Below, in pieces: positions 9,979-28,907 of a stretch of DNA of 41,966 nucleotides (positions within the stretch are counted from its first letter, which is position 1; each line of letters opens with the position of its first letter). The notes under the pieces are model-generated. The model searched no databases. It saw only the letters and a list, made by a program, of their open reading frames with translations, and was not told the origin of the DNA. This stretch comes from Candidatus Geocrenenecus huangii (lineage in GTDB: Archaea; Thermoproteota; Nitrososphaeria_A; Caldarchaeales; Wolframiiraptoraceae), in the NCBI GenBank assembly GCA_023254095.1, contig JALNLM010000008.1:1-41966 (forward strand), written 5' to 3'. The translations under genes and the position numbers were made by a program.

Positions 9979-11481
9979 ATGACGAAGACTCTTGCGTTAT
10001 TTCTTATATTCTTGTTACTAATTTCTACAGGTTTAGCTACAGCTTTAAGCCAGGATGGTTCTTCTATATCATCTGATAGAACGCTTAAAGATAAAGTAGA
10101 AAGCCTACTAGAGGAGGTTGGAAAACTCTTAAGTGAAGCTAGACAAGAAATAGAGCAGGCAGGAGATGCTGGTCTGGATGTAAAGATCTATAGAGAGATT
10201 CTTGAAGCGGCTGAACTGAAATATCAAGAGGGGCTGGAACTCTATAAAAGAGGAGAACACGATAAAGCATTCTCGACACTAGTATATGCGAAGACAAGGA
10301 TCCAAATAATCATAAAGGCCTTACAAGGAATAGTTGGCGGAAAGATCTCTGTAAAACCTTCAATCCAAGAGGTCCAGAGTAAGCTTGAGTCATTAAAGAA
10401 GAAGTATGATGAATTAGAATCGATTGTAGTTCAATTTATTGAAGAAGAACCTTTAGAAAAACTACTTAGTCAAGCTCGTGACCTCATTAGTAAGGCTGAA
10501 GACATATTAGATAAAAACCCTCAGACTGCATATTCTCTACTAGTTAAGGCTGAGACTGTCCTAAGACAAGTTGAGGAAGCCGTCGGGGTCTCCCATACAA
10601 CAGTAGCAACGAAAGAGACCGAAACCTCGCATACGTCTATTCAGCCTATTACTCCATCCACAAAGATGGAGAATACGGTTAGCACTACCCTCTACATACA
10701 ACAATCTTCTTCCACGGAATCGGAGACTGTTAGAGAAGGTGAAGTCAATATAGAGTTAGAGAGGAAAGATGGAGAATACAGGGTTGTTGTGGAGCATGTA
10801 GAATATCTTATCCAGTATGAGAATGGCACAATACTAATTAGTAGAGAGAAGATAATTACAATAGGAAATAAAACTATTGTTTCTATTAGTAAGGAGCTTG
10901 TCTATGGTATGAATGAATCCAGAAACATAGGTCAAGTATCAGTCGAACAAGAACGGAATATCGTAGGTGCATGGTTTAAAATCTTTAAGGATGCTCCACC
11001 GGAAGTCTATAGACTCGATGAAGCAATCGAAGCCCAGATAATGGAGGCTGAGAAGAATAGAGTTAAGGTTAGGCTTAAGGCTCCAGACAATACTTCAGGC
11101 AGGCTCTTCATAGTAGAGCTTTCCCCAGAAGTTGTAGACCTTGAGAATATCATGGGATTTAATCTTACAGTCAATAATGAGAAAGCTATTCTAGCTTCAA
11201 GCTTCCTAGACCTCGCTTCTGGAATATACGATCAGCCAGCATACGTCTTTATAATCTCAGCAAGAGGAATACAGGTCCTCTTGTACATCCCCCACTTCAG
11301 TGAATACATAGTTGAGATAAACGCGGTAATACAGAAGGTCATCGAAGTATTCAAAGAAAACCTTCAGAGAATCTTCACTATACAAGTAGCAACATATACA
11401 ACTGTAACAGCTACAATCATACTAATAGCATCAACAGCGATCATAATAAATCAGAAAAGACGCTTACAGAAAATAGGGTAG
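9979..11481 (+). CDS. Cell-surface (glyco)protein with signal peptide, helical repeats, S/T-rich linker and C-terminal TM anchor
   Basis: N-terminal hydrophobic signal, two helical-bundle repeats, Ser/Thr-rich segment at about aa 205-250, beta-rich domain ending YIPHFSEY, TM plus basic tail KRR. Sequons NGT, NKT, NES, NTS, NLT. Confidence 0.75.
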   Translation: MTKTLALFLIFLLLISTGLATALSQDGSSISSDRTLKDKVESLLEEVGKLLSEARQEIEQAGDAGLDVKIYREILEAAELKYQEGLELYKRGEHDKAFSTLVYAKTRIQIIIKALQGIVGGKISVKPSIQEVQSKLESLKKKYDELESIVVQFIEEEPLEKLLSQARDLISKAEDILDKNPQTAYSLLVKAETVLRQVEEAVGVSHTTVATKETETSHTSIQPITPSTKMENTVSTTLYIQQSSSTESETVREGEVNIELERKDGEYRVVVEHVEYLIQYENGTILISREKIITIGNKTIVSISKELVYGMNESRNIGQVSVEQERNIVGAWFKIFKDAPPEVYRLDEAIEAQIMEAEKNRVKVRLKAPDNTSGRLFIVELSPEVVDLENIMGFNLTVNNEKAILASSFLDLASGIYDQPAYVFIISARGIQVLLYIPHFSEYIVEINAVIQKVIEVFKENLQRIFTIQVATYTTVTATIILIASTAIIINQKRRLQKIG

Positions 11482-14159: not shown

Positions 14160-14648
14160 CTAGCTATCTTCGCTCTTCAGCAGTTTTTTAAGTCTATAAA
14201 GTTGATTCCTTAATTCTTCAGCAGACTCTACGAATTCCCTCAACTTGACGTCTTCATCTTCTCCGTTAACCAACTCAATCTCCGGTTCTCTGAGTAGATC
14301 TTCCAGTTTCTCGTCTTCCTCCAAAACGTTATCTTGCCCTTCCATGTGTTCTTGTTCATTCTTTTCCTCAGTTTTTTCATCTAGGATCTCCCTACGTGGA
14401 GAGCCCATTAAGTTGTCTTCCATCTTTTGGTTAATCTTCTTAGCCGGTTCTTCGATTATCTCTTCTGACACAATACTTACATCTTCTAAGGTTTCTCTAC
14501 GCGGTGGACTAGATTCTCTTGGACGATGTGTCATTGGGGGTCTCACCGTTTTCTTTTCTCTTAATAGAAGCAGCGCGACGACGTAGGCTATAGTTATCAC
14601 CAACGCCAGCATTATCCACGTTGAAGGAGAGATAGGTTCTGGAGACAT
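14160..14648 (-). CDS. Single-TM acidic protein with C-terminal coiled coil, last gene of the archaellum operon
   Basis: N-terminal TM helix, E-rich disordered middle, amphipathic C-terminal helix. TAATG overlap with flaJ. Confidence 0.7.
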   Translation of the reverse strand: MSPEPISPSTWIMLALVITIAYVVALLLLREKKTVRPPMTHRPRESSPPRRETLEDVSIVSEEIIEEPAKKINQKMEDNLMGSPRREILDEKTEEKNEQEHMEGQDNVLEEDEKLEDLLREPEIELVNGEDEDVKLREFVESAEELRNQLYRLKKLLKSEDS

Positions 14649-16195
14649 TATAGTCCCCCTGTTATCTCTATCATTTCTTCTTCAAACCTTATGAAGAGAC
14701 GGAATAGTGTATCGGATGCCAGCGAGACTAGGTAGTAGATCACTCCGCTCAGAGTTAATAGTAACCCGAGGCAATAGGTTGGTGTGAACTTCGAGTCTCC
14801 TTCAACTATGTAGAGTGCTATTGAGCTTGATAAAGCTGTCACTAGTATTATCGTGTAGAAGTATGTAGAGATCTGAGAGGGGCTAATCATAGCTATTACT
14901 GGAAACCAGTCTTGTATTAGTAGGCTAAACCTGTAAAGTATTTTCGCTAGAGTTGCTATTAACGCAGCTACTGCGACTAGCGTGGCCTGTAAAGGTATAG
15001 CTAGACCTCTAAGAGTGCCGGCAACCTGTCTTCTCTTCTTTCTATCAATCAACTGTCTAATCACGTAGTCGTACACAGATTTGGCGTAGACTTCAGATCT
15101 AGCTCCGTAGAATATACTATCCGCTATTATTCTAATAGTTTTTAAGATGAGGTTGCTCAGGCTTTCCAGTCCTAGAATGTTTAGAGACTTGTTCTGCTCG
15201 AATCCCATTTCAAGCCTTCTACGTAGACGTCTAATCAGCTTGTTCAACGCTCCGTAATCATTCACCTCCAGAATGACCGAGGACGCTTTCAGGGAGTTTG
15301 TGACCGAGATGGCGTCTCCTAGAGACTTCACGAAGGATGGGTAGCTTTCATCTATCTTCTCTACTTGTTTTATCCATTTTCTCCCAATCTTCCCTACTAG
15401 GAGAAGCGGTATACCTGCAGTGATGATGGGTAGAGGTATCGGTGTTAGATTATTGATAATGGGGTTTTCTGAGCTCATGCTCTTGTTTAGCAGGATGAAT
15501 AAAATTATCGAGAAAGCGATACATGGAATAAAGATTAGTGAATTAAATTTATGGATCATCTTTAGAGAGGGTGGGGCAAGCTCTTCGGTGTGCAGTATAG
15601 GGTCAGGCGGTAAAGCCCTAGCCATCAAGAATATTATGGTGGCCAGCGTCCCGGCTATCATAAGTACAGAATAGGTTAATACCTTGTCGACTTCGACACC
15701 GTATATCATTGAGGTCAAAAGCATTGAGACGCTCAAAAAAGTTGCAGACGTTAGTAGAGCAGAGTATGCTTCAATATACCTTTTTACTCTTTCTACCGCT
15801 CTATCGAATTCTGCAGCACTTGTTTCTAGAAGCTTCTCATACTCGATCTTCATAAAGTTCTCTAAGTCTACCCCCATATTCAAAGAGTATGAAAGTCTCT
15901 GGAGGAATTTCTTGATATTATCTTCTCTAATCGTTGAGGAAACTAGCTGGATTGCTTTATGCAGTGTATAGTTCCACCTATTCACTAATAGTGATATCTT
16001 GCTAAAGATTGCTGTTAAGTCTCCGAGGGCGTATCTTGATCTTCCCGCTATGTTTATAACATCTCTAGGCGATGAGGTGACAGTCGAGAGAGAGTATAGG
16101 TGGATTATCATTATCGAGTAGAAGCCTCTAAGCTTCGCAGATTGTTCAAAATCCTCTATGAAGGCCTTTACCGTCTTCAATAATCGTTTAATCAT
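14648..16195 (-). CDS. flaJ: Archaellum membrane platform protein ArlJ (FlaJ)
   Basis: Polytopic TadC/GspF-like protein (FLQRLSYSLNMGVDLENF, YPSFVKSLG) directly downstream of flaI. Confidence 0.9.
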   Translation of the reverse strand: MIKRLLKTVKAFIEDFEQSAKLRGFYSIMIIHLYSLSTVTSSPRDVINIAGRSRYALGDLTAIFSKISLLVNRWNYTLHKAIQLVSSTIREDNIKKFLQRLSYSLNMGVDLENFMKIEYEKLLETSAAEFDRAVERVKRYIEAYSALLTSATFLSVSMLLTSMIYGVEVDKVLTYSVLMIAGTLATIIFLMARALPPDPILHTEELAPPSLKMIHKFNSLIFIPCIAFSIILFILLNKSMSSENPIINNLTPIPLPIITAGIPLLLVGKIGRKWIKQVEKIDESYPSFVKSLGDAISVTNSLKASSVILEVNDYGALNKLIRRLRRRLEMGFEQNKSLNILGLESLSNLILKTIRIIADSIFYGARSEVYAKSVYDYVIRQLIDRKKRRQVAGTLRGLAIPLQATLVAVAALIATLAKILYRFSLLIQDWFPVIAMISPSQISTYFYTIILVTALSSSIALYIVEGDSKFTPTYCLGLLLTLSGVIYYLVSLASDTLFRLFIRFEEEMIEITGGL

Positions 16196-17909
16196 ATTCC
16201 TCGATCTCCCAGATTTTTTCTCCTAGACTGATTCGCTCCAGCGTCTCCTCAACACTCCTATTGTAAGTATACTTGATGACTCTCCATATATGGAAATAGT
16301 CTAATATGTTCAATCTAGCAAGAGTGGAGAGAAGCTCAGCCCTCATCTCTAGGTCTACATAGATCTTCTTCAAGTCTCTTCTACCGATCCCCTTCATTAC
16401 GGCTATCTTATTCTCTAGAAGATGGCTACTACCCTCACCTCTAAATTCATGTAGATCCGTACTAGGCTGCCAACTGAACAACTCAATATAATCAAATCTA
16501 TTATCTTCTGGGTCGTATCCAACTATCTCATTTATCGATAATACCCTCCTCTCTACTTTCCCCGTGCTAGGTATTCTTACAGCACTTTGGACGACTACTG
16601 CGTTAAGTATGTCTATGTATGTTTTCGGGATTTCTATAGGAGAGCCTGAAAGTCTTTGGATTAACTTCTCAACACTTCCAGCATGGAATGTAGCAAGTAC
16701 AGGAGCACCCGTCTGCATCGCCTGGAAAGCCACGCTCGCTTCTTTCCCTCTAACCTCTCCAACTATAATATAGTTTGGCCTCTGCCTGAGAGCTGCCTTC
16801 AATAAATCGAATAATTCTATGCTTGAGCTCCCCGACTCGGATTGTCTTGTTACCTCTCTCACCCAGTTATCGTGGGGAACTATTATCTCAGGCGTATCTT
16901 CTATGCTTATTATCTTATAGTGGGGATTGATGAACACACATACTGCTCGTAGGAGCGTTGTCTTACCGCTAGCTGTTTCCCCGCAAAACCAGATACTCAT
17001 ATTGTTTTCGAGAAGAATCCATAGGTAAGCTGCGCCTAGAGCACTTATCCCGCCGTACTTGATTATCTGGATTATACTTATAGGTTTATCACTAAATTTC
17101 CTGATAGTAAAGTTCGTGCCCTTCATGCTTATATCTTTCCCGAATACTATGTTAATCCTAGAGCCATCCGGAAGGGATGCATCGACGATAGGGTTTCTAA
17201 AAGTTACAGGTCTGCCAGTTCTCTCCGAGAGCTTTCTAACAAAATTGTCTAACTCATACTCATCTCTAAACACTATATTAGATTGACAGCTTCCAAAAAT
17301 CTTATGCTCTACGAAAATTGGGCCAACTCCGTCACAGCTAACGTCCTCGATATACTCATCTCTAATAAAAGGTTCAAGTATTCCCATCCTTATTTTATCC
17401 ATTATCAATTGATATTCTAAAGACCTGTACGTCTCGTTGTTTACGTATATTCTTTTGTAGCCGCTCTTCTTCTCTATTCTATAATCTCCTGTCTTAAGGC
17501 TTCCATCTATCTTGATCGTATTCTTTAGAATCTTCTTCAAGACTTCTTCATGTTCTTCCACAGTTTTGAAGTCTACACTCTCATCTATCTTGGAGATTAT
17601 TAATTCTTCGACGATCTCCATTATCCTGCATATCTTCTCATTGATAGTTGGCTGGATGACAATATATGATGGTCTCTCTCCCGGCTTCACAGATTTTATA
17701 TGAATGAATATTGGATCTCCTACAGGGTACAAAATGTTTACTTCTTTAGAGTACCTCATCTCTCGGCTGAGCTGCTCAAAATATTCTGGAAGCTCCTCGC
17801 CCTTCCTAGCTAGATTATCTAGGTATCTTGCTAGATGAGGATTCTTTGAAAGAGAATCCTTAAAATTCTTGGCAAGCCTTTCCTCCATGGTCTTGACTAT
17901 TTGACTCAT
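16188..17909 (-). CDS. flaI: Archaellum motor ATPase ArlI (FlaI)
   Basis: YPVGDPIFIHI, DASLPDGSR, Walker A GETASGKTT, IEDTPE, ALRQRPNYIIVGEVRG, TFHA. Confidence 0.95.
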   Translation of the reverse strand: MSQIVKTMEERLAKNFKDSLSKNPHLARYLDNLARKGEELPEYFEQLSREMRYSKEVNILYPVGDPIFIHIKSVKPGERPSYIVIQPTINEKICRIMEIVEELIISKIDESVDFKTVEEHEEVLKKILKNTIKIDGSLKTGDYRIEKKSGYKRIYVNNETYRSLEYQLIMDKIRMGILEPFIRDEYIEDVSCDGVGPIFVEHKIFGSCQSNIVFRDEYELDNFVRKLSERTGRPVTFRNPIVDASLPDGSRINIVFGKDISMKGTNFTIRKFSDKPISIIQIIKYGGISALGAAYLWILLENNMSIWFCGETASGKTTLLRAVCVFINPHYKIISIEDTPEIIVPHDNWVREVTRQSESGSSSIELFDLLKAALRQRPNYIIVGEVRGKEASVAFQAMQTGAPVLATFHAGSVEKLIQRLSGSPIEIPKTYIDILNAVVVQSAVRIPSTGKVERRVLSINEIVGYDPEDNRFDYIELFSWQPSTDLHEFRGEGSSHLLENKIAVMKGIGRRDLKKIYVDLEMRAELLSTLARLNILDYFHIWRVIKYTYNRSVEETLERISLGEKIWEIEEYD

Positions 17910-17913
17910 CCTC

Positions 17914-18633
17914 TCACGCTTTAGCTCTAGAGAAGGGGAGTACCTTTATCCCGAATGCAGGATCAACATCGAAGCTCAAGGTTATCGATGTCTGCTTCAC
18001 TGCACCTTTTAATTTTGGGACTTGAAGTATCTTGACTATCCTGTCGCCTATCTCTTTGACCTGTAGTATGAAATGGACGTCCGAGATGCTTCTCATTCTT
18101 ACAAGCATTTCTTCGCTGAAAGCATATGGGTGAACGGTTACTATCATTGACTTATCCTTTTCCTCTATTATGTTTCTAGCCTCTGTGAAGAAGTTGAGAA
18201 TATCTTCTTCTTTAGCATGAGTGACCAGGTATGTTAGAGAGTCGATAACGTATAGGTCGAAGTATTCTCTAAGTTTTATAGTGTTCAATATCAGCTCTAG
18301 GAACCTTGATGAGAGGAGTTCATCCCATTCCAAGTCTTTAACATGTAATTCGTAGATCTGTAATACACCCTTCAAGTAGTATTCTTTTACCGATAGGCTA
18401 ATCTCTTCCATCGATTTTAGAAGACCCCTAACCCCAGATTCAGTAGTTATAAAAAGTGTTCTGCAACCACACCTAAGAGCCCCGTAAACATATTGTTGTG
18501 CCAAGACACTTTTCCCACTATCATTTGGACCCTCGATCAAGCATAAGAAGGGGATTCTAAGTTCCCCGATCTTTCTATCTAGCTCAGGGTTCATCGCTTT
18601 TACAAATCTAGATTTACCAGATTCCTCGCTCAG
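17914..18633 (-). CDS. flaH: Archaellum KaiC-like ATPase ArlH (FlaH)
   Basis: Walker A GPNDSGKS, Walker B VIDSLT, TVHP, SFDVDPAFGIKVLP. Start uncertain: CTG 18633 (SD-supported), TTG 18657 or ATG 18594. Confidence 0.9.
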   Translation of the reverse strand: MSEESGKSRFVKAMNPELDRKIGELRIPFLCLIEGPNDSGKSVLAQQYVYGALRCGCRTLFITTESGVRGLLKSMEEISLSVKEYYLKGVLQIYELHVKDLEWDELLSSRFLELILNTIKLREYFDLYVIDSLTYLVTHAKEEDILNFFTEARNIIEEKDKSMIVTVHPYAFSEEMLVRMRSISDVHFILQVKEIGDRIVKILQVPKLKGAVKQTSITLSFDVDPAFGIKVLPFSRAKA

Positions 18634-19166
18634 TTTCTCCCACCTCCTTCGATGCAAGGCACTATCAAGACTGACTCTCCAACAACTGGTTCATCTTTTC
18701 TTACCCATGCTTCTATTAGTAGAGCTTCGCCTGGATCCCATAATCCTGATTTAAAATCTCCTGAGACTGGGTTAACCAATTCCGCATGATTACCGTACTC
18801 TATTCTTAGTGGGAGCCAACCCTCATCTAAGCTTCTACTTGGATTATATGTAAGCCATTTTACTCTAGTCTTGTTATCGGTTGATCTATATAGAAAGATT
18901 ACGTCGAGAAGAGGAAAATCTGTTACATGTAGAGGTTTAATACATTTATTCACAAGTTTTAATGATATCGACGTGTTGTCCGGAGAAATCTCTAACTCTC
19001 TGATCTCTATTTCTCCCCTATTTCCTAGTGAGCTCTTCTCTAAGTACTGGCTATAGTATATGAAAAGCGATGTATTGTTGGACAGACTGTTTAACATGTA
19101 TCCAACTAATATGAGCGTAGTTAGCGTAAAGATTACGAACACGGAGAGACTTCCAAGACTAGACAT
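18630..19166 (-). CDS. flaF: Archaellum stator protein ArlF (FlaF)-like
   Basis: N-terminal TM helix, beta domain with LVNP...GLWDPGE. Lies between flaG and flaH. Confidence 0.7.
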   Translation of the reverse strand: MSSLGSLSVFVIFTLTTLILVGYMLNSLSNNTSLFIYYSQYLEKSSLGNRGEIEIRELEISPDNTSISLKLVNKCIKPLHVTDFPLLDVIFLYRSTDNKTRVKWLTYNPSRSLDEGWLPLRIEYGNHAELVNPVSGDFKSGLWDPGEALLIEAWVRKDEPVVGESVLIVPCIEGGGRN

Positions 19167-19177
19167 TCCATAACCCC

Positions 19178-19666
19178 CTACACTGAGAAAAAGTATTCAC
19201 AGGTTTTTCCATTGAACAGTACTAGCTTGACATTGTAATCTCCTTCAGTAAGTGCTTCGTCTAGATTTGATGTAATCTCTAGTGTCTCAGCAGGATCCCA
19301 TCTACCATCATCGTCTACGTCATTCAGCAGTCTGTATGTCCAGCCAGACGATGGATCTTCGTGGAGAAGATACTTTACACTATTATATGATATTAGGAGT
19401 ATCTCTGAAGATTGTATTAGTTGAGGTGATACCTGTTTTGCTCCAGTATTCTTTACCCACAGCTTCACGATATCTGAAGAAATAGATGAATAAGCGAAGA
19501 CTATTCTACAATCGTATTCTATTTCTTCTTTGATTTTCGCTAGTTGAAGTTTCTGAAGGTCTGCTGCTTGATTCATGTTTGAGATGTAGACGCTTGCTAT
19601 GGTTGATGCAACGACGATCGATACTATTGCAAGAATTACCTCCGTCATTAATGACCCTACAGGCAT
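19178..19666 (-). CDS. flaG: Archaellum stator protein ArlG (FlaG)
   Basis: TEVILAIVSIVVAS TM helix, LWVKNTG, WDPAETLEI, GDYNVKLV. ATG 19666 follows the upstream stop. Confidence 0.8.
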   Translation of the reverse strand: MPVGSLMTEVILAIVSIVVASTIASVYISNMNQAADLQKLQLAKIKEEIEYDCRIVFAYSSISSDIVKLWVKNTGAKQVSPQLIQSSEILLISYNSVKYLLHEDPSSGWTYRLLNDVDDDGRWDPAETLEITSNLDEALTEGDYNVKLVLFNGKTCEYFFSV

Positions 19667-19667
19667 G

Positions 19668-20318
19668 TCACGGCACACCCTCTCTACTCTTAAATTCTCC
19701 GAGAGGCTCCTTCAAACCAAACATTAGTAGTATGAAGAACCTATCGTCTACTCTATTATTAGCTAGCAGGCTTATAATGTATGCTGCTGCAACTGTAGAA
19801 TCTAGAGATAACCGGCTCGGAGAACGAACATATACTTCTCCACCAGAATATTTGAGTAGAAAATCCACTACGTCTATCAGAGAATATATCAGTCTCCTAG
19901 GTACAAGTTGACCGGCTATCCTAGAGTTGAGAAACTTTAATACATGTTCCGGACCTAGCAGCTTTATCAGTATCGAACCGCATGCTAGAACATTTAGTAG
20001 GTTTACTTGACCTAAATGAGGTTCTTCGAATCTCGATCCTATGCTTTCTCTACCTACATCCTCGAAATCTTGGAGAGGTTCCTGGAAGACTTCTTTTTTA
20101 CTACTCTTCTTTACGTTTTCTACTTCTTGAGATGCTTGCCTAGGCTGAAATTTTTCAAGGTCTATTATCTTCGCAACGTAGTTGAAGGGGTTTTCCAGCT
20201 CCGATATGAGTTGTCTTACGTCCATGAGTGTAGTCTCTAGAGGTCCCTTCATCCTTCTAACTTCATCTTCAAGTTCTCTAAGCCTCTTTTCGAGGAAGCT
20301 GTGTTCTTCACGGCTCAT
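19668..20318 (-). CDS. Soluble archaellum accessory protein with coiled coil and ENPF motif (ArlCDE/ArlX-related)
   Basis: N-terminal coiled coil ending LMDVRQLISELENPFNY, reminiscent of the NPF motif of ArlC/ArlX. Occupies the slot upstream of flaG. Confidence 0.6.
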   Translation of the reverse strand: MSREEHSFLEKRLRELEDEVRRMKGPLETTLMDVRQLISELENPFNYVAKIIDLEKFQPRQASQEVENVKKSSKKEVFQEPLQDFEDVGRESIGSRFEEPHLGQVNLLNVLACGSILIKLLGPEHVLKFLNSRIAGQLVPRRLIYSLIDVVDFLLKYSGGEVYVRSPSRLSLDSTVAAAYIISLLANNRVDDRFFILLMFGLKEPLGEFKSREGVP

Positions 20319-20841
20319 CCACTCTTTCCTCCAGAGGAGTTATAAGAACAAATTCACATATTGTGTTCTCATTTTCATCTAGGCACGTTGAAACCTTCTT
20401 AATTTCTAACGGCATTTTAAAGAACAGCTCATAATATCTTGAAAGTATTCCTCTATAGAAAAAGTATACGAGAGAAGTTTTGAAGTCTGAGTCTTCTTTA
20501 GAGAATTTCTCAAATTCTTTACTATTGATTCTACAGACTAATTCTAGACGACCGTCCGGTCTAAATGCTTTAAGTATAAAGGTATCCTTAACAAGGTTAT
20601 GTATCTTTAAACAATTGACAAGATACTCATTAGCTTCTTCAAGAGAAGCTCCTCCAGACTTTAAACATGGATGTAGATTGAATAAATCTTCACCGATAGA
20701 CCTGCCAAAGCTATAAAGCAGAACGTTCGTCAGACCCATTCCCAAGCTACTTTTAACAACGTCTAATATCAGTCCTATCACTTCATTAATGCCTGTGAAT
20801 GAGAAACCATTACATTCTTTATCCGAATTGAATACGCTCAT
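20308..20841 (-). CDS. V4R (4-vinyl reductase)-like ligand-binding domain protein, first gene of the archaellum motor operon
   Basis: LLYSFGRSIG, FFYRGILSRYYELFF and C-x8-CEF (TCLDENENTICEFVL) follow the V4R pattern. Confidence 0.65.
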   Translation of the reverse strand: MSVFNSDKECNGFSFTGINEVIGLILDVVKSSLGMGLTNVLLYSFGRSIGEDLFNLHPCLKSGGASLEEANEYLVNCLKIHNLVKDTFILKAFRPDGRLELVCRINSKEFEKFSKEDSDFKTSLVYFFYRGILSRYYELFFKMPLEIKKVSTCLDENENTICEFVLITPLEERVDEP

Positions 20842-20953
20842 AATCTCACAATCCCCTCAAAATAATACTAAAAAGATATTTATATATTTTTCTTGAGCTA
20901 TTTTTGTAAGATAACATTTATATATCAGTATTATCTAAATATTATTGAGAAAA
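20842..20953. promoter_or_regulatory. Divergent promoter region between the motor operon and the archaellin
   Basis: AT-rich, with ATTTATATAT twice (20878-20887 and 20916-20925). The second copy is flanked by the inverted pair AGATAA...TTATCT. Confidence 0.55.
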
Positions 20954-21556
20954 ATGTGGTGGAAAACTCAGGTAAGGAGAAAGATGAGTAGACGTGGATT
21001 AACAGGCCTAGAGACAGCCATCATTCTAATAGCATTCGTTATCGTTGCTGCTGCATTTGCTTTTGCAGTATTGAATCTGGGATTTGCATCTACTCAAAAA
21101 AGTGGTGAAGTTCTAAAAGCTGGATTAGAAGAAGCTACTTCAAGCATAGAGCTAGCAGGCTCGGTGATAGCTACTGGCGAAAAAGCGAGTGATAATAATA
21201 TGAAGGTGTCCAATATTACATTATATGTCAAGACTGCGGTTGGAAAGAGACCTGTAGATCTCAGTAACAATACTTTGATAATATCTTACATGGATCCATA
21301 TAAGGTCGTCGACAAACTTACCCATGGAGTACAAGTAGAAGTCTCGGAAATACAGGGTGATGGAGATTCCCTGATAGAGTATGGTGAATCATTTAAGGTC
21401 GTAATACATGTTGATCAGATCTACGGAGGTATCGATAACGTCCAGCTAAAGCCTAATGATGTATTCGTAATAGAAGTCAAGCCTCTGGTAGGCGCAGTAC
21501 TAAAAGTTGAGAGAAGGATACCTCCATCAATCGATCCTGTAATGGACCTAGCATAA
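20954..21556 (+). CDS. flaB: Archaellin ArlB (FlaB)
   Basis: Class III signal peptide RRG/LTGLETAIILIAFVIVAAAFAF, GDGDSLIEYGE, IEVKPLVGAVL; sequons NIT and NNT. Start is ATG 20954 or ATG 20984 (AGGAG upstream). Confidence 0.95.
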   Translation: MWWKTQVRRKMSRRGLTGLETAIILIAFVIVAAAFAFAVLNLGFASTQKSGEVLKAGLEEATSSIELAGSVIATGEKASDNNMKVSNITLYVKTAVGKRPVDLSNNTLIISYMDPYKVVDKLTHGVQVEVSEIQGDGDSLIEYGESFKVVIHVDQIYGGIDNVQLKPNDVFVIEVKPLVGAVLKVERRIPPSIDPVMDLA

Positions 21557-21635: not shown

Positions 21636-22658
21636 TTGAAGATCCTTTTATCGTCTCCTAGGATCTCTGGAGTTGGCGGGATAGCTCATCATGTTAGAAC
21701 GCTTGCTAGGAAACTTCGGGACAAGGGCTTCGTGGTGGATATTCTTTCCGCTGAATACTTGAAGATACCCAGCTTGAAGAATTTAGCTAATCCATTGTAT
21801 GGGCTCCTCTCATACTTGAAGACCATCACGAAGGAATACGATATCGTTCATGGACATAATCTACCATCTCTTCCAGCTATCCTATCTTCTAGTGGCGGGA
21901 AGGTCTTGACTCTCCATGGATTGTACTCCAAGCAGATACGGCTACTTCACGGTCAGCAGCTAGGGTACATGGCTGAAGTCGTTGAAAAAAAGTTTCTGAG
22001 GAAGCTAGATGCTATAACAACTGTATCTATGGAGGCCTTGAAATACTATGAGGGCCTCGGGTTAAAGGTTGAGCACATACCTAACGCTATAGACTTGCTA
22101 GATCTACCTAAAGACTCTGAGAGAATATGCAGTCCTCAAATAACCTATCTAGGCAGGTTATCTTATGAGAAGGGTGTAGACTTACTGATCGAGACTGCGG
22201 CTAGATACGGTCTTAGAGGATTGGTTATTGCTGGAGATGGGCCGCTAAGGAGATTTTTCGAGAAAGCTCATGAAAAGAAGCTACTCACATATCTTGGACC
22301 TCTACCTAGGTGGAGAGCGTTGAGAGTCCTCGCAGGCTCTGATGCGGCAATTTTACCCTCTAGACAAGAGGGGATAAGCACGTTCCTACTAGAGGCCATG
22401 GCCTTAAAAATACCCGTGATAGCTAGTAAGGTAGGAGGGAACATAGAAATTATCCAAGAAAACGTAGAAGGTATTCTAATAGAGCCGGATGCTGGAGAAA
22501 TAGCTAAAGCGGCTAGAAATGTTTTGACGAAAACCATCCCAGTAGATAAGATGATCGATAAAGCGTATAATAAGATACTAACACAGTATGAATGGAATAC
22601 TGTGTTGAAAAAATACCTAAACGTTTATGCAAGAATCCTAGACCTAAAACGCTTTTAG
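21636..22658 (+). CDS. Glycosyltransferase family 4 (GT-B)
   Basis: GGIAHH, TLHG, IPNAID, LGRLSYEKG, AGDGP, EGISTFLLEAMA. Confidence 0.9.
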   Translation: MKILLSSPRISGVGGIAHHVRTLARKLRDKGFVVDILSAEYLKIPSLKNLANPLYGLLSYLKTITKEYDIVHGHNLPSLPAILSSSGGKVLTLHGLYSKQIRLLHGQQLGYMAEVVEKKFLRKLDAITTVSMEALKYYEGLGLKVEHIPNAIDLLDLPKDSERICSPQITYLGRLSYEKGVDLLIETAARYGLRGLVIAGDGPLRRFFEKAHEKKLLTYLGPLPRWRALRVLAGSDAAILPSRQEGISTFLLEAMALKIPVIASKVGGNIEIIQENVEGILIEPDAGEIAKAARNVLTKTIPVDKMIDKAYNKILTQYEWNTVLKKYLNVYARILDLKRF

Positions 22659-22806: not shown

Positions 22807-23958
22807 TTGAGTACAGGGCCACCAACTATAAAATATATTGTTGAAGCCAGAATAGAGGTAGATGGCATAGTTGATAGAAATGATATCGTTGGAGCGATCT
22901 TCGGTCAAACGGAGGGGTTATTCAGTAGCGACCTAGACCTTAGAGAACTTCAGAAAGCTGGAAGAATAGGTAGAATAGAGATCCATACAAACGCACATGG
23001 AGATAAAACAATTGGGAGAATCACCGTACCATCTGCACTGGATAAGTATGCAACAGCCCTGATAGCGGCCATGGTTGAGAGCGTTGATAGGGTAGGACCA
23101 TACCAAGCTAGAACAAAGATCGAGAAGATAGAAGACGTGAGAGCGGAAAAGAAAAAGAAGATACTTGAAAGAGCCAGAGCGATACTTTATGATTGGGAGA
23201 AGAGCAAAATCCCCGAAGACGACCAGCTACTGAAGGAGCTAGAAGAAACAGTACTGAAGGCGAAAATAATAGAGTATGGCCCTGAGAAGCTTCCGGCAGG
23301 GCCGGAAGTTGAATTAAGTGATGAATTGATCATAGTTGAGGGACGTGCTGATGTTATAAACTTACTTAGACATGGGTTTAAGAATGTAGTTGCTGTTGAA
23401 GGAGTAAAGATTCCTAAAACTATCGAGTCTCTAGCAAGTAAGAAGAAGAAGGTAATCGCATTCCTAGATGGGGATAGAGGAGGAGATATGATACTCAGTG
23501 AGCTCATCAGAATGAATATTAAGATAGACCAAGTAGCTAGAGCACCTCATGGAAAAGAAGTTGAAGAATTAACGGGGAAGGAGATATTCGAATCATTTCA
23601 GAAAGCTGTCCAAATACAGGAGATATTAAAAAACATGAAGATAAAACCTAAACCAGAAGAGGTAGAAGTACCCTCACAGATAAAGGAGTATGTAAAAGAA
23701 GTTGATGGGAAACTAGTATCGATACTGTTGAATGAAGACCTGGTAGAGCTTGCTAGAGTGCCTGTAAGCGAGCTTGCTCAGAAACTACAGGAATTGAAGA
23801 ATGATGTAAAATACGTGGTCTTCGATGGAATAATAACACAGCGTCTAGTAGATATACTTTCAGACGCTCCTAGAGACGTATACATGATAGGGGTTAGACT
23901 AGGAGACATCGTAAATCCATCACCGAGAGTCCACATGTTAATATCCAGTAGACTATAG
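22807..23958 (+). CDS. dnaG: Archaeal DnaG (TOPRIM protein, exosome-associated)
   Basis: GAIFGQTEGL, LRELQKAGRIGRI, IIVEGRADV, FLDGDRGG, FDGIITQRL. Confidence 0.95.
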   Translation: MSTGPPTIKYIVEARIEVDGIVDRNDIVGAIFGQTEGLFSSDLDLRELQKAGRIGRIEIHTNAHGDKTIGRITVPSALDKYATALIAAMVESVDRVGPYQARTKIEKIEDVRAEKKKKILERARAILYDWEKSKIPEDDQLLKELEETVLKAKIIEYGPEKLPAGPEVELSDELIIVEGRADVINLLRHGFKNVVAVEGVKIPKTIESLASKKKKVIAFLDGDRGGDMILSELIRMNIKIDQVARAPHGKEVEELTGKEIFESFQKAVQIQEILKNMKIKPKPEEVEVPSQIKEYVKEVDGKLVSILLNEDLVELARVPVSELAQKLQELKNDVKYVVFDGIITQRLVDILSDAPRDVYMIGVRLGDIVNPSPRVHMLISSRL

Positions 23959-27469: not shown

Positions 27470-27637
27470 ATATTCAACCATAGATATACCGTATGAAAAT
27501 ACATCTTTGGGAGAATAGTACAAGAGGTACAGAAAATTAATGGATCAGATTCTAAAATCTTTGAAAGAACTATCTGTTGGAGGCTAGAACTTGAAAAAAT
27601 CTACAATAAGCAAGAATATTCATCTTCAGGAGGCTTA

Positions 27638-27659
27638 TCTCCACTTGAACAAAAGGGGT
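27638..27659 (+). repeat. Origin recognition box ORB-3 abutting the cdc6 start
   Basis: TCTCCACTTGAACAAAAGGGGT immediately before TTG 27660. Confidence 0.8.
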
Positions 27660-28907
27660 TTGGAGGATCCTTTACGGGACGTTGTTAATAAGGCTTTACA
27701 GAGACCTAAAATCTTCAAAGATAGGCAAGTTATGCGTTCAGATTACATCCCTGGAAATCTTCCTCACAGGTCTGAACATATTAGAAGGCTGGGAGAGATT
27801 CTTTCTCCATCTCTACGTTTCTCTAGAGCAAGTAACGTTTTCATCTATGGTAAGACTGGTACAGGGAAGACGGCCGTCGTTAAGTATGTCTTCAAAAGAT
27901 TTAAGGAGGTCGCCGACCTCGAGAGGTTGCCACTACAGTTCTCTTACATTAACTGTCGTATTGCTGGAACAGAATATCGAGTACTTGCTGAACTATGTGA
28001 TTCAATCGGTGTTAGAGTACCCTTTACAGGCTTGTCTAAAGCAGAGGTATTCAATAGGTTTAGGAGTTCACTGAAGGAGAAGAACATGTTCTTGATAACA
28101 TGCTTAGACGAGATAGATGTACTAGTAAAAAATTATGGAGACAATCTCCTATATGAATTGACTAGAATTAATGAAGGCTTTGAGGCTGGAGGATTAAATC
28201 TTGTCGGTGTATCGAATGACCTCCACTTCAAAGAGCTACTAGACCCAAGAGTACTGAGTAGTCTAAGCGAGGAGGAACTCGTCTTCCATCCATACACTGC
28301 ACTAGAGTTAGTCGACATACTGATGGAGAGAGCGGCCATGGCCTTCTATCCTGAGGCGGTCCCAGAAGAAGTAATCAGACTGTGCGCTGCCCTCGCAGCA
28401 CAGGAGCATGGAGATGCTAGGAGGGCTATAGATCTACTAAGGGTTGCAGCCGAGATAGCTGAGAGGAGCGGGGCCTCTGTGGTCGAAGAAAAACATGTTA
28501 GGTTAGCTCAGAACATGATTGAGAGAGGTAGAGTTTTCGAAGCATTATCTACACTTCCGCTTCACAGCAAGCTTGTTCTGACATCCCTATATCTCCTAGC
28601 GAGAAATAATGTGCAGAACTCTATGTCGGGATTACTCTACGAAGCCTACCGTCAAGTATGCTCTCTATTAGGTATAGAACCGTTAAGTGATAGAAGAGTT
28701 AGCACGCTTATATCAGAACTCGATATGCTAGGTGTTCTCAAAAGTGAGGTTGTAAGTATGGGCAGGTATGGTAGGTCTAGGAAGATAACACTCATGACAT
28801 CAATTGACGAAATTGAACAAGTGTTAGAGAACGACGACCTCCTTAAAACTATCTTGAAAGATGTGAAAAACCTATATACCGTCAAGAAAGAAGCCTCTAC
28901 TAAGTAG
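27660..28907 (+). CDS. cdc6: Orc1/Cdc6 replication initiator
   Basis: YIPGNLPHR, Walker A GKTGTGKT, YINC, Walker B LDEID, LDPRVLSSL, HGDARRAIDLLR, and wHTH with SMGRYGRS. Start moved from 27591 to TTG 27660 (xEDPL N-terminus). Confidence 0.95.
   Translation: MEDPLRDVVNKALQRPKIFKDRQVMRSDYIPGNLPHRSEHIRRLGEILSPSLRFSRASNVFIYGKTGTGKTAVVKYVFKRFKEVADLERLPLQFSYINCRIAGTEYRVLAELCDSIGVRVPFTGLSKAEVFNRFRSSLKEKNMFLITCLDEIDVLVKNYGDNLLYELTRINEGFEAGGLNLVGVSNDLHFKELLDPRVLSSLSEEELVFHPYTALELVDILMERAAMAFYPEAVPEEVIRLCAALAAQEHGDARRAIDLLRVAAEIAERSGASVVEEKHVRLAQNMIERGRVFEALSTLPLHSKLVLTSLYLLARNNVQNSMSGLLYEAYRQVCSLLGIEPLSDRRVSTLISELDMLGVLKSEVVSMGRYGRSRKITLMTSIDEIEQVLENDDLLKTILKDVKNLYTVKKEASTK

Follow-up and report, generated by a model that had tools for sequence, protein, structure and literature searches.

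The 41,966-nucleotide (nt) stretch of DNA analysed here (hereafter the window; positions 1 to 41,966 of contig JALNLM010000008.1 in assembly GCA_023254095.1 of Candidatus Geocrenenecus huangii, family Wolframiiraptoraceae of the Caldarchaeales or 'Aigarchaeota') carries an operon for the archaeal motility filament, the archaellum (arl), whose first gene encodes a 177-amino acid (aa) protein (20308..20841, minus strand). By its modelled fold and its profile homology, this protein is a divergent, stand-alone member of the V4R family, and its gene keeps its position beside that of a 216-aa cytoplasmic motor component (19668..20318, minus strand) among related hot-spring archaea. From its fold, homology and operon position we tentatively propose that it is a lineage-specific and dispensable accessory factor dedicated to the archaellum, possibly a regulatory adaptor or scaffold at the motor base, a role we regard as plausible, at somewhat less than even odds.

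The operon consists of eight co-directional, tightly packed open reading frames (ORFs) on the minus strand (14160-20841), with the 177-aa gene as leader and the archaellin gene arlB transcribed divergently from it. This arrangement agrees with the original prediction for this DNA, made from the letters alone, which had described eight tightly coupled minus-strand arl genes led by a V4R gene, although the range it assigned to them (17914-20841) covers the first five of the eight. The junctions had been described as overlaps or gaps of 11 nt or less, and six of the seven are: in operon order they comprise two overlaps of 11 nt each, a gap of 11 nt, an overlap of 28 nt, a gap of 4 nt and overlaps of 8 and 1 nt, the exception being the 28-nt overlap between the ArlF and ArlH genes, a figure that assumes the longest-ORF TTG start for ArlH.

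Recognition of the 177-aa protein as a V4R depends on profile and structure comparisons. It gave no hmmscan match at E ≤ 0.1 and does not reach the gathering score of the Pfam V4R model (PF02830; 31 bits), its best showing in a genome scan with that model being 11.8 bits (E = 0.43) at the C-terminus. The family is rare, with 5 clusters at 90% identity among 5.8 billion sequences and 10 representatives at E ≤ 0.001 among 1.84 billion sequences. Among these ten, P0044 qualifies as a Pfam V4R in its own right (44.8 bits), and hhalign aligned a 13-sequence profile of the family to it with a probability of 96.4% (E = 1.1e-9). A jackhmmer search seeded with the V4R found at the orthologous position in genus g4, which is Pfam-positive, recovered the 177-aa protein at 5.7e-39, and jackhmmer likewise united the arl-linked proteins of the window's family (f1) with those of genus g8, so that profile-level homology to bona fide V4R proteins is found along more than one route. 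As a lead only, ESM features place the protein nearest to V4R clusters (score 0.92); a homologue carries the annotation 'predicted hydrocarbon binding protein' in one source.

The AlphaFold2 (AF2) model of the protein (predicted local distance difference test (pLDDT) 79.4, predicted template modelling score (pTM) 0.78) is built of four helices, a beta-hairpin, a long helix and a second beta-hairpin, which is the alpha-beta fold of V4R, Bet3 and H-NOX proteins. At E ≤ 1e-3, Foldseek returned three Bet3/TRAPPC3 chains and the phenol sensor MopR, four matches in all, and the structural neighbours gathered with Foldseek and VIA comprise Bet3, PoxR/MopR/DmpR, BcsD, MJ1460 and H-NOX, the oligomeric scaffolds BcsD and Bet3 scoring the same Z as the sensors. 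We do not assign the protein to Bet3/TRAPP or BcsD: there is no Pfam or PDB sequence match to either, all neighbouring genes are arl genes and the fold alone is common. A search of PDB sequences with the family profile gave chance-level kinase matches only (E = 0.15), and neither a family scan nor the AF2 model revealed a DNA-binding domain. The fold check proposed for the original V4R call has thus come out in its favour, with AF2, Foldseek and hhalign agreeing on fold and homology.

The association with archaellum genes recurs well beyond this genome. We surveyed 76 genomes of the order, from which 36 arl loci were retrieved and annotated (families, genera, genomes and loci are denoted below by f, g, G and L numbers, respectively). 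A profile of the V4R-like protein matches 18 of the 76, all of them in f1, three of the matches being 268-279-aa ORFs located elsewhere in the genome that represent generic V4R proteins; the profile of the 216-aa protein matches 43 genomes in families f1, f2 and f3, and ArlI exceeds its cut-off in 28. Within f1, a V4R-like ORF lies directly upstream of the 216-aa gene in every one of the 16 loci, counting the window, whose sequence extends that far, across genera g1-g5, and its other neighbour is arlB in 15 of them, the sixteenth locus starting at a contig end. The g4 versions diverge from the profile (E = 9e-9 to 9e-5) and are detectable as V4R by Pfam itself (E = 1.9e-7 (31.5 bits), 2.8e-6 and 9.9e-5). 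Presence of the two genes is closely coupled: the V4R-like gene is adjacent in 16 of the 17 f1 genomes that carry the 216-aa gene, the exception being a decayed locus, and among the 18 without it a strong match to the V4R-like family occurs once, at a contig end. A congener (G051) retains only broken arlJ, arlI and arlH, everything from arlF through arlB having been lost, the V4R-like and 216-aa genes included. In genus g8 of the sister family f2, a Pfam-detectable V4R (E = 5.9e-7, 29.9 bits) stands 10 nt upstream of the 216-aa homologue, and the junction between the two genes elsewhere varies from an 11-nt overlap in the window and a 14-nt overlap in g2 to a 13-nt gap in one g4 locus. The linkage is therefore not peculiar to the window genome, and in this respect too the original prediction holds.

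A third family may extend the pattern. Upstream of the ArlCDE-like gene, f3 loci carry ORFs of 174 aa (L045), 158 and 192 aa (L046) and 154 and 197 aa (L047) that look V4R-like by eye, the 158-aa ORF of L046 also in ESM features (0.93). Comparison with V4R by hhalign gave probabilities of only 2-7% for the three tested, and an extended hidden Markov model reached E = 0.001-0.005 for four of the f3 ORFs, no better than its false match to an ArlCDE-like protein; we therefore treat their V4R-like character as a lead only.

Beyond the order, we sampled 401 Thermoproteota genomes, with Pfam V4R matches in 188 (544 matches) and ArlI at E ≤ 1e-140 in 112. Sequence of up to 19.9 kb around ArlI was examined in 57 genomes from 55 genera outside the order (980,748 non-overlapping bases), and V4R-like ORFs occur near arl genes in 7 of these, 5 of them Pfam-confirmed. 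About one such gene would be expected by chance in the ~0.98 Mb, a rough figure obtained by spreading the 544 matches across roughly 600 Mb and to be read with the small numbers and the sampling of genomes in mind. Four of the 57 have the V4R(-like) gene directly beside arlB. Window-like in layout is G290 (f29), where a 163-aa protein (Pfam V4R, 37.3 bits) is encoded 181 nt from the divergent arlB and is followed by two unknown ORFs and an ArlCDE-like gene; G346 (f47) encodes a 155-aa protein (Pfam V4R, 48.4 bits) 44 nt after arlB, G315 (f27) a 288-aa protein (Pfam V4R, 30.8 bits) divergent from arlB at 37 nt and from the whole operon, and G178 (f6) a 187-aa protein, matched by the profile and not by Pfam V4R, divergent from arlB at 144 nt. 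Pairwise BLAST scores among arl-linked V4Rs are too weak to decide on a single origin across the phylum.

Two ORFs of 138 and 170 aa that separate the V4R and ArlCDE-like genes of G290 (L100:13935-14853) are co-directional and have no Pfam match at E ≤ 1, the first appearing Roadblock/LC7-like by eye. Separately, the sole Pfam-level V4R gene of the window genome encodes a 266-aa ACT+V4R protein (L001:1495-3161) and adjoins a gene for a Thaumarchaeal output domain (TackOD1) protein, not a KaiC; ORFs of 266-327 aa matched by the V4R-like profile are found in many genomes of the phylum sample. The recurrent pairing of V4R with archaeal KaiC-family ATPases to which the original prediction appealed gained no confirmation here, PMC5847659 naming both without linking them.

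The 216-aa protein has 30 homologue clusters, of which 28 were aligned, and the NPF motif originally noted in this coiled-coil protein proved real: the surrounding ENPFN (E42-N43-P44-F45-N46) is invariant in 28/28 homologues. Its AF2 model opens with a long N-terminal helix (residues 3-55), forming a coiled coil that terminates in ENPFN, continues through a disordered linker (residues 56-103) into a C-terminal domain (107-203) modelled confidently as helical, and found no fold match in PDB at E ≤ 0.001. Members of the family match Pfam FlaC_arch (20 of 28) and ArlX (18 of 28) weakly, and the window protein itself has no Pfam match above threshold. Profile alignment by hhalign places the family next to a positional counterpart from another family, which carries Pfam Arch_fla_DE (27.4 bits; cut-off 21), with a probability of 97.4% (E = 1.5e-11) over 196 columns that include the C-terminal domain, whereas an ArlX-type protein was aligned at 77% and through the NPFN-bearing coiled coil only. 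From these two comparisons, the 216-aa protein is, on alignment evidence, a member of the ArlC/D/E family, and the cluster thus includes a cytoplasmic component of the ArlX or ArlC/D/E type. The assignment agrees with Makarova et al. 2016, who identified FlaC/D/E counterparts in Crenarchaeota and Thaumarchaea by HHpred (PMC4858521), while later reviews still call the thaumarchaeal component unidentified (PMC8978795).

Conservation of the V4R-like gene is not matched by conservation of its metal site. V4R domains are described as having three conserved Cys in a cluster (PMC5847659), and in our alignment (A4) the 177-aa protein does not carry all three: the first is replaced by Y126, while C152 and C162 are kept, just as had been read from the sequence at first sight (two C-terminal Cys retained, the upstream one missing). 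Of the remaining two, C152 is common only to the window protein and its closest homologue, and the close group conserves C162; in g2, g3 and g5 this last position is Tyr, and these genera keep the gene in place although they have no Cys at any of the three triad positions. The triad is intact in the arl-linked V4Rs of g4, of g8 in the sister family and of families f29 and f47. A motif specific to the clade, AN-x-[FL]-L...LK...L-[VA]-[KR]-D, is common to genera g1, g2, g3 and g5. Judged from these alignments, the canonical V4R metal site is decayed in the window genus while the gene has been retained, and any ligand binding by the 177-aa protein is predicted not to proceed via a site of the PoxR/MopR type.

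These observations can be assembled into a working model. The V4R fold and homology, the conserved position, the loss along with arl genes and the stop/start overlap point to an accessory dedicated to the archaellum and acting at the motor base. The 177-aa protein would be made from the same transcript as the 216-aa protein, the stop of its gene overlapping the start of the next, and would act in the cytoplasm by protein-protein contact with the motor base, its contact partner presumably being the ArlCDE-like protein and/or ArlH. There it may serve as a regulatory adaptor or scaffold, not as a canonical ligand sensor; the adaptor is favoured over the sensor because the triad decays while the gene persists, because a new clade motif is present and because scaffold structures (BcsD, Bet3) are among the nearest to the model. 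Complex prediction for the 216-aa and V4R-like families (A2 and A3) scored 0.00 in both runs, a 'no answer' outcome that weighs neither way on binding.

Several findings weigh against this model or narrow it. The V4R-like gene does not belong to the structural core because nine f2 arl loci (g6, n = 8; g9, n = 1) have an ArlCDE-like gene and no V4R gene, arlB and the 216-aa homologue being direct divergent neighbours no more than 223 nt apart, and because no other gene of the operon evolves as fast: its product shows 25-31% identity from genus to genus, compared with 60-75% in ArlH and 62-73% in ArlI. The choice of partner is questioned by the four lineages outside the order, where the V4R(-like) gene adjoins arlB and not the ArlCDE-like gene, an arrangement just as compatible with a role in archaellin handling or expression. 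Loss of the Cys triad, moreover, would still permit ligand binding via another pocket.

The original prediction had gone further and read the operon leader as a possible sensor: on binding a small hydrophobic ligand, the V4R would signal to the ArlCDE-like protein or to ArlH and so gate or steer the motor as a one-component system independent of Che. Its premises are partly sound. For V4R domains, binding of hydrophobic ligands and signalling in cis or in trans have been proposed (PMC2253512), and the 177-aa protein is a V4R by the comparisons above; its gene is translationally coupled to that of the ArlC/D/E-like protein, and ArlCDE is the docking site of CheF in Euryarchaeota (PMC8978795, PMC13705601). 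The full triad is kept in the g4, g8, f29 and f47 versions. The reported lack of che and cheF genes in the window is correct and applies to the whole genome (1.61 Mb, 96.4% complete), in which CheF, the signal domain of methyl-accepting chemotaxis proteins (MCPs) and CheW/CheA each gave 0 matches and the only receiver domain belongs to a REC-HTH protein encoded next to a PAS-HAMP histidine kinase.

The comparative data nevertheless turn against this reading. Across the order, a single genome of the 76 contains CheW and none contains CheF, and the che-less genomes include those of g6 and g9, whose arl loci carry no V4R, so that the absence of che does not single out the V4R. Conversely, of five other lineages whose arl locus contains a V4R or has one close by, G346 and G178 possess CheW/CheA genes, which in G178 lie between the two arl sub-clusters on the same contig; Pfam CheF was found in none of the five. 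V4R presence does not track Che absence. The survey of linkage against che genes that the original prediction called for thus upheld the recurrence of the linkage and not its tie to missing chemotaxis genes, and the V4R is no simple stand-in for Che because the two coexist in two other lineages and che is lacking order-wide. The triad has been degraded in the window protein, three genera have lost it altogether, and experimental evidence for ligand binding by V4R domains is described as limited (PMC2253512). Weakened on all three counts, by order-wide che absence, by coexistence of V4R and che and by the eroded triad, a ligand-sensing, Che-independent taxis input now appears unlikely on the sequence record.

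Two observations on chemotaxis genes stand apart from this question. The lone CheW genome of the order contains a cluster (L065; G017:C71:1-12000) in which a second ArlI gene sits beside CheW, a CheA-like gene, arlB and arlG, with no V4R-like ORF nearby, and which could reflect horizontal acquisition or binning contamination. G346 and G178 combine CheW/CheA and archaella with no Pfam-detectable CheF.

A second explanation looks to archaellin supply instead of the motor, and we judge it improbable as well: the V4R would act with a DNA-binding protein on the divergent promoter to co-regulate transcription of arlB and the arl operon, or would handle archaellin before assembly. It draws on arlB being the most widely shared neighbour of the V4R-like gene, within f1 as well as across the short gaps recorded in f29, f47, f6 and f27; on the f27 gene, which being divergent from the whole operon occupies a typical regulator position; and on the common use of V4R domains as sensors in transcription activators (PoxR, MopR and DmpR, for example). 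The 177-aa protein, however, lacks a DNA-binding domain, no candidate partner regulator was found beside its gene, and in this order that gene is co-directional and translationally coupled with the motor genes, not with arlB.

More speculative is the generalization that stand-alone V4Rs form a recurrent, hitherto overlooked archaellum input module of Thermoproteota, binding a hydrophobic metabolite or lipid, docking on the ArlC/D/E-like protein or ArlH and gating rotation or assembly, a proposal to which we give little credence. Were it true, che-less hot-spring archaea would gain a one-component tactic or stop-go response, and V4Rs might supply the missing adaptor in che-positive lineages that have no Pfam-detectable CheF. 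Least credible of all is a passenger without any motility role, a generic V4R gene that landed in the ancestral arlB/arlCDE intergenic region: V4R genes are indeed common in the phylum sample, the gene evolves fast and the sister-family arl loci lack it, but its position is kept across five genera despite that divergence, it is lost together with the arl genes, it overlaps the start of the next gene, and Pfam-confirmed V4R genes near arl outnumber the rough chance estimate by five to about one.

The archaellum operon and its ArlC/D/E-like gene are already known; a V4R gene that belongs to this operon as a conserved member appears not to have been described before. Our literature search found no paper mentioning V4R together with archaella. 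In their main text, two genome-based surveys of type IV filament systems in archaea, one of them from 2016, do not mention V4R; the supplement of the 2016 survey lists a '4VR domain' three times, two of these passages standing beside ferredoxin and FrhG genes of Methanoculleus and not at arl loci, and the readable part of the 2026 survey's supplements contains no V4R match. The V4R-like protein is accordingly a concrete new candidate component of the archaellum, and bears both on archaellum control in lineages without chemotaxis genes and on the poorly defined cytoplasmic motor parts outside Sulfolobus and Euryarchaeota. A replacement of Che should not be assumed, because sister lineages do without the gene, the metal site of its product is subject to decay and V4Rs coexist with che elsewhere.

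The remaining genes of the operon, all on the minus strand, complete a recognizable machinery. ArlG (19178..19678) was identified by Pfam Arch_flagellin (32.4 bits) and, weakly, by NCBIfam ArlG (E = 1.9e-10, under the cut-off), and ArlF (18630..19166) by its position and N-terminal hydrophobic helix alone, with no family match, phmmer homologues occupying the ArlF position in related arl loci. The KaiC-family protein ArlH (17914..18657) matches NF004723 at 269.7 bits (cut-off 194) as well as Pfam KaiC, the motor ATPase ArlI (16188..17909) matches NF058587 at 661.1 bits (cut-off 550), and the platform protein ArlJ (14648..16195) matches NF004705 at E = 7.4e-74, under the model cut-off. Together with arlB, the window thus encodes ArlB, ArlG, ArlF, ArlH, ArlI and ArlJ, ArlF being counted by position only. 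The last gene of the operon (14160..14648) specifies a 162-aa protein with an N-terminal transmembrane (TM) helix and an acidic tail; it has no family match, although homologues occupy the equivalent place in G048 (1e-25) and G042 (2e-10), and a weak match in G047 (6e-9) falls inside a 283-aa ORF that overlaps arlJ.

On the plus strand, arlB (20945..21556) encodes an archaellin recognized by Pfam Arch_flagellin (102 bits) and TIGR02537. Between it and the V4R-like gene lies an A+T-rich divergent intergenic region of 103 nt (20842..20944) with a TATA-like AAAAATATATAAAT and a GAGGGG stretch ahead of the ATG, which we infer to be a promoter region from these sequence features. Downstream of arlB, a family 4 glycosyltransferase (GT4) gene (21636..22658, plus strand; Pfam Glycos_transf_1, 92 bits), which neighbours arlB in G048 and G047 as well, is a possible candidate for archaellin glycosylation. 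Farther out, a Toprim-domain protein (22807-23958) and an Orc1/Cdc6 gene (27591-28907) are encoded less than 7 kb from the arl operon, and given these two genes a replication origin may lie nearby; a 500-aa ORF (9979-11481) has only a sub-threshold Pfam match (Rx_N, E = 2.3e-4).

Two further observations concern arl loci of the order at large. The f3 loci L045-L051 (for example L045:5681-8638) have ArlI ORFs of 936-986 aa against the usual ~570, the NCBIfam ArlI model covering only positions 1-373 in its first piece, which suggests a family-wide insertion of ~400 aa, possibly an intein. Loci L064 (G051), L039 (G016) and L059 (G057) are decayed, with split ArlI and ArlJ and truncated ArlH, and of seven further genomes in the window's genus, five have no ArlI match over the family cut-off; from these observations, motility loss appears to be frequent in the window's group, of which no member is known to be in culture.

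The 177-aa protein can be set beside known V4R and related proteins. The V4R domains of PoxR, MopR and DmpR (PDB 5fru, 5kbe, 6iy8) differ from it in that it stands alone, with no AAA+ or HTH output domain, and in that its first triad Cys is a Tyr and the triad is not conserved in its clade. MJ1460 (PDB 2oso) is likewise a stand-alone archaeal V4R, yet has no reported motility link, and the window protein falls below the Pfam threshold. Relative to the Bet3/TRAPPC3 and BcsD scaffolds, the window has no TRAPP partner or cellulose-synthase genes nearby and the protein no sequence-level match.

At the level of the operon, one close comparison is the Thermoproteota-type arl operon of Sulfolobus acidocaldarius (arlB-arlX-arlG-arlF-arlH-arlI-arlJ; PMC8978795), with which the window shares a single archaellin, arlG before arlF, the ArlH/ArlI/ArlJ core, one cytoplasmic coiled-coil protein between arlB and arlG and the lack of chemotaxis genes. 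It differs in the inverted arlB, in the extra V4R gene at the front and the extra TM/acidic gene at the end, and in its coiled-coil protein, which, unlike ArlX, has no N-terminal TM helix and has an ArlD/E-like C-terminal domain. The CheY-CheF-ArlCDE input of Euryarchaeota (PMC8978795, PMC13705601) differs in that the window genome has no CheF, CheA/W or MCP and V4R is unrelated to CheF; the two are alike in that a protein of the ArlC/D/E family has a small cytoplasmic protein encoded alongside it, which may act on it.

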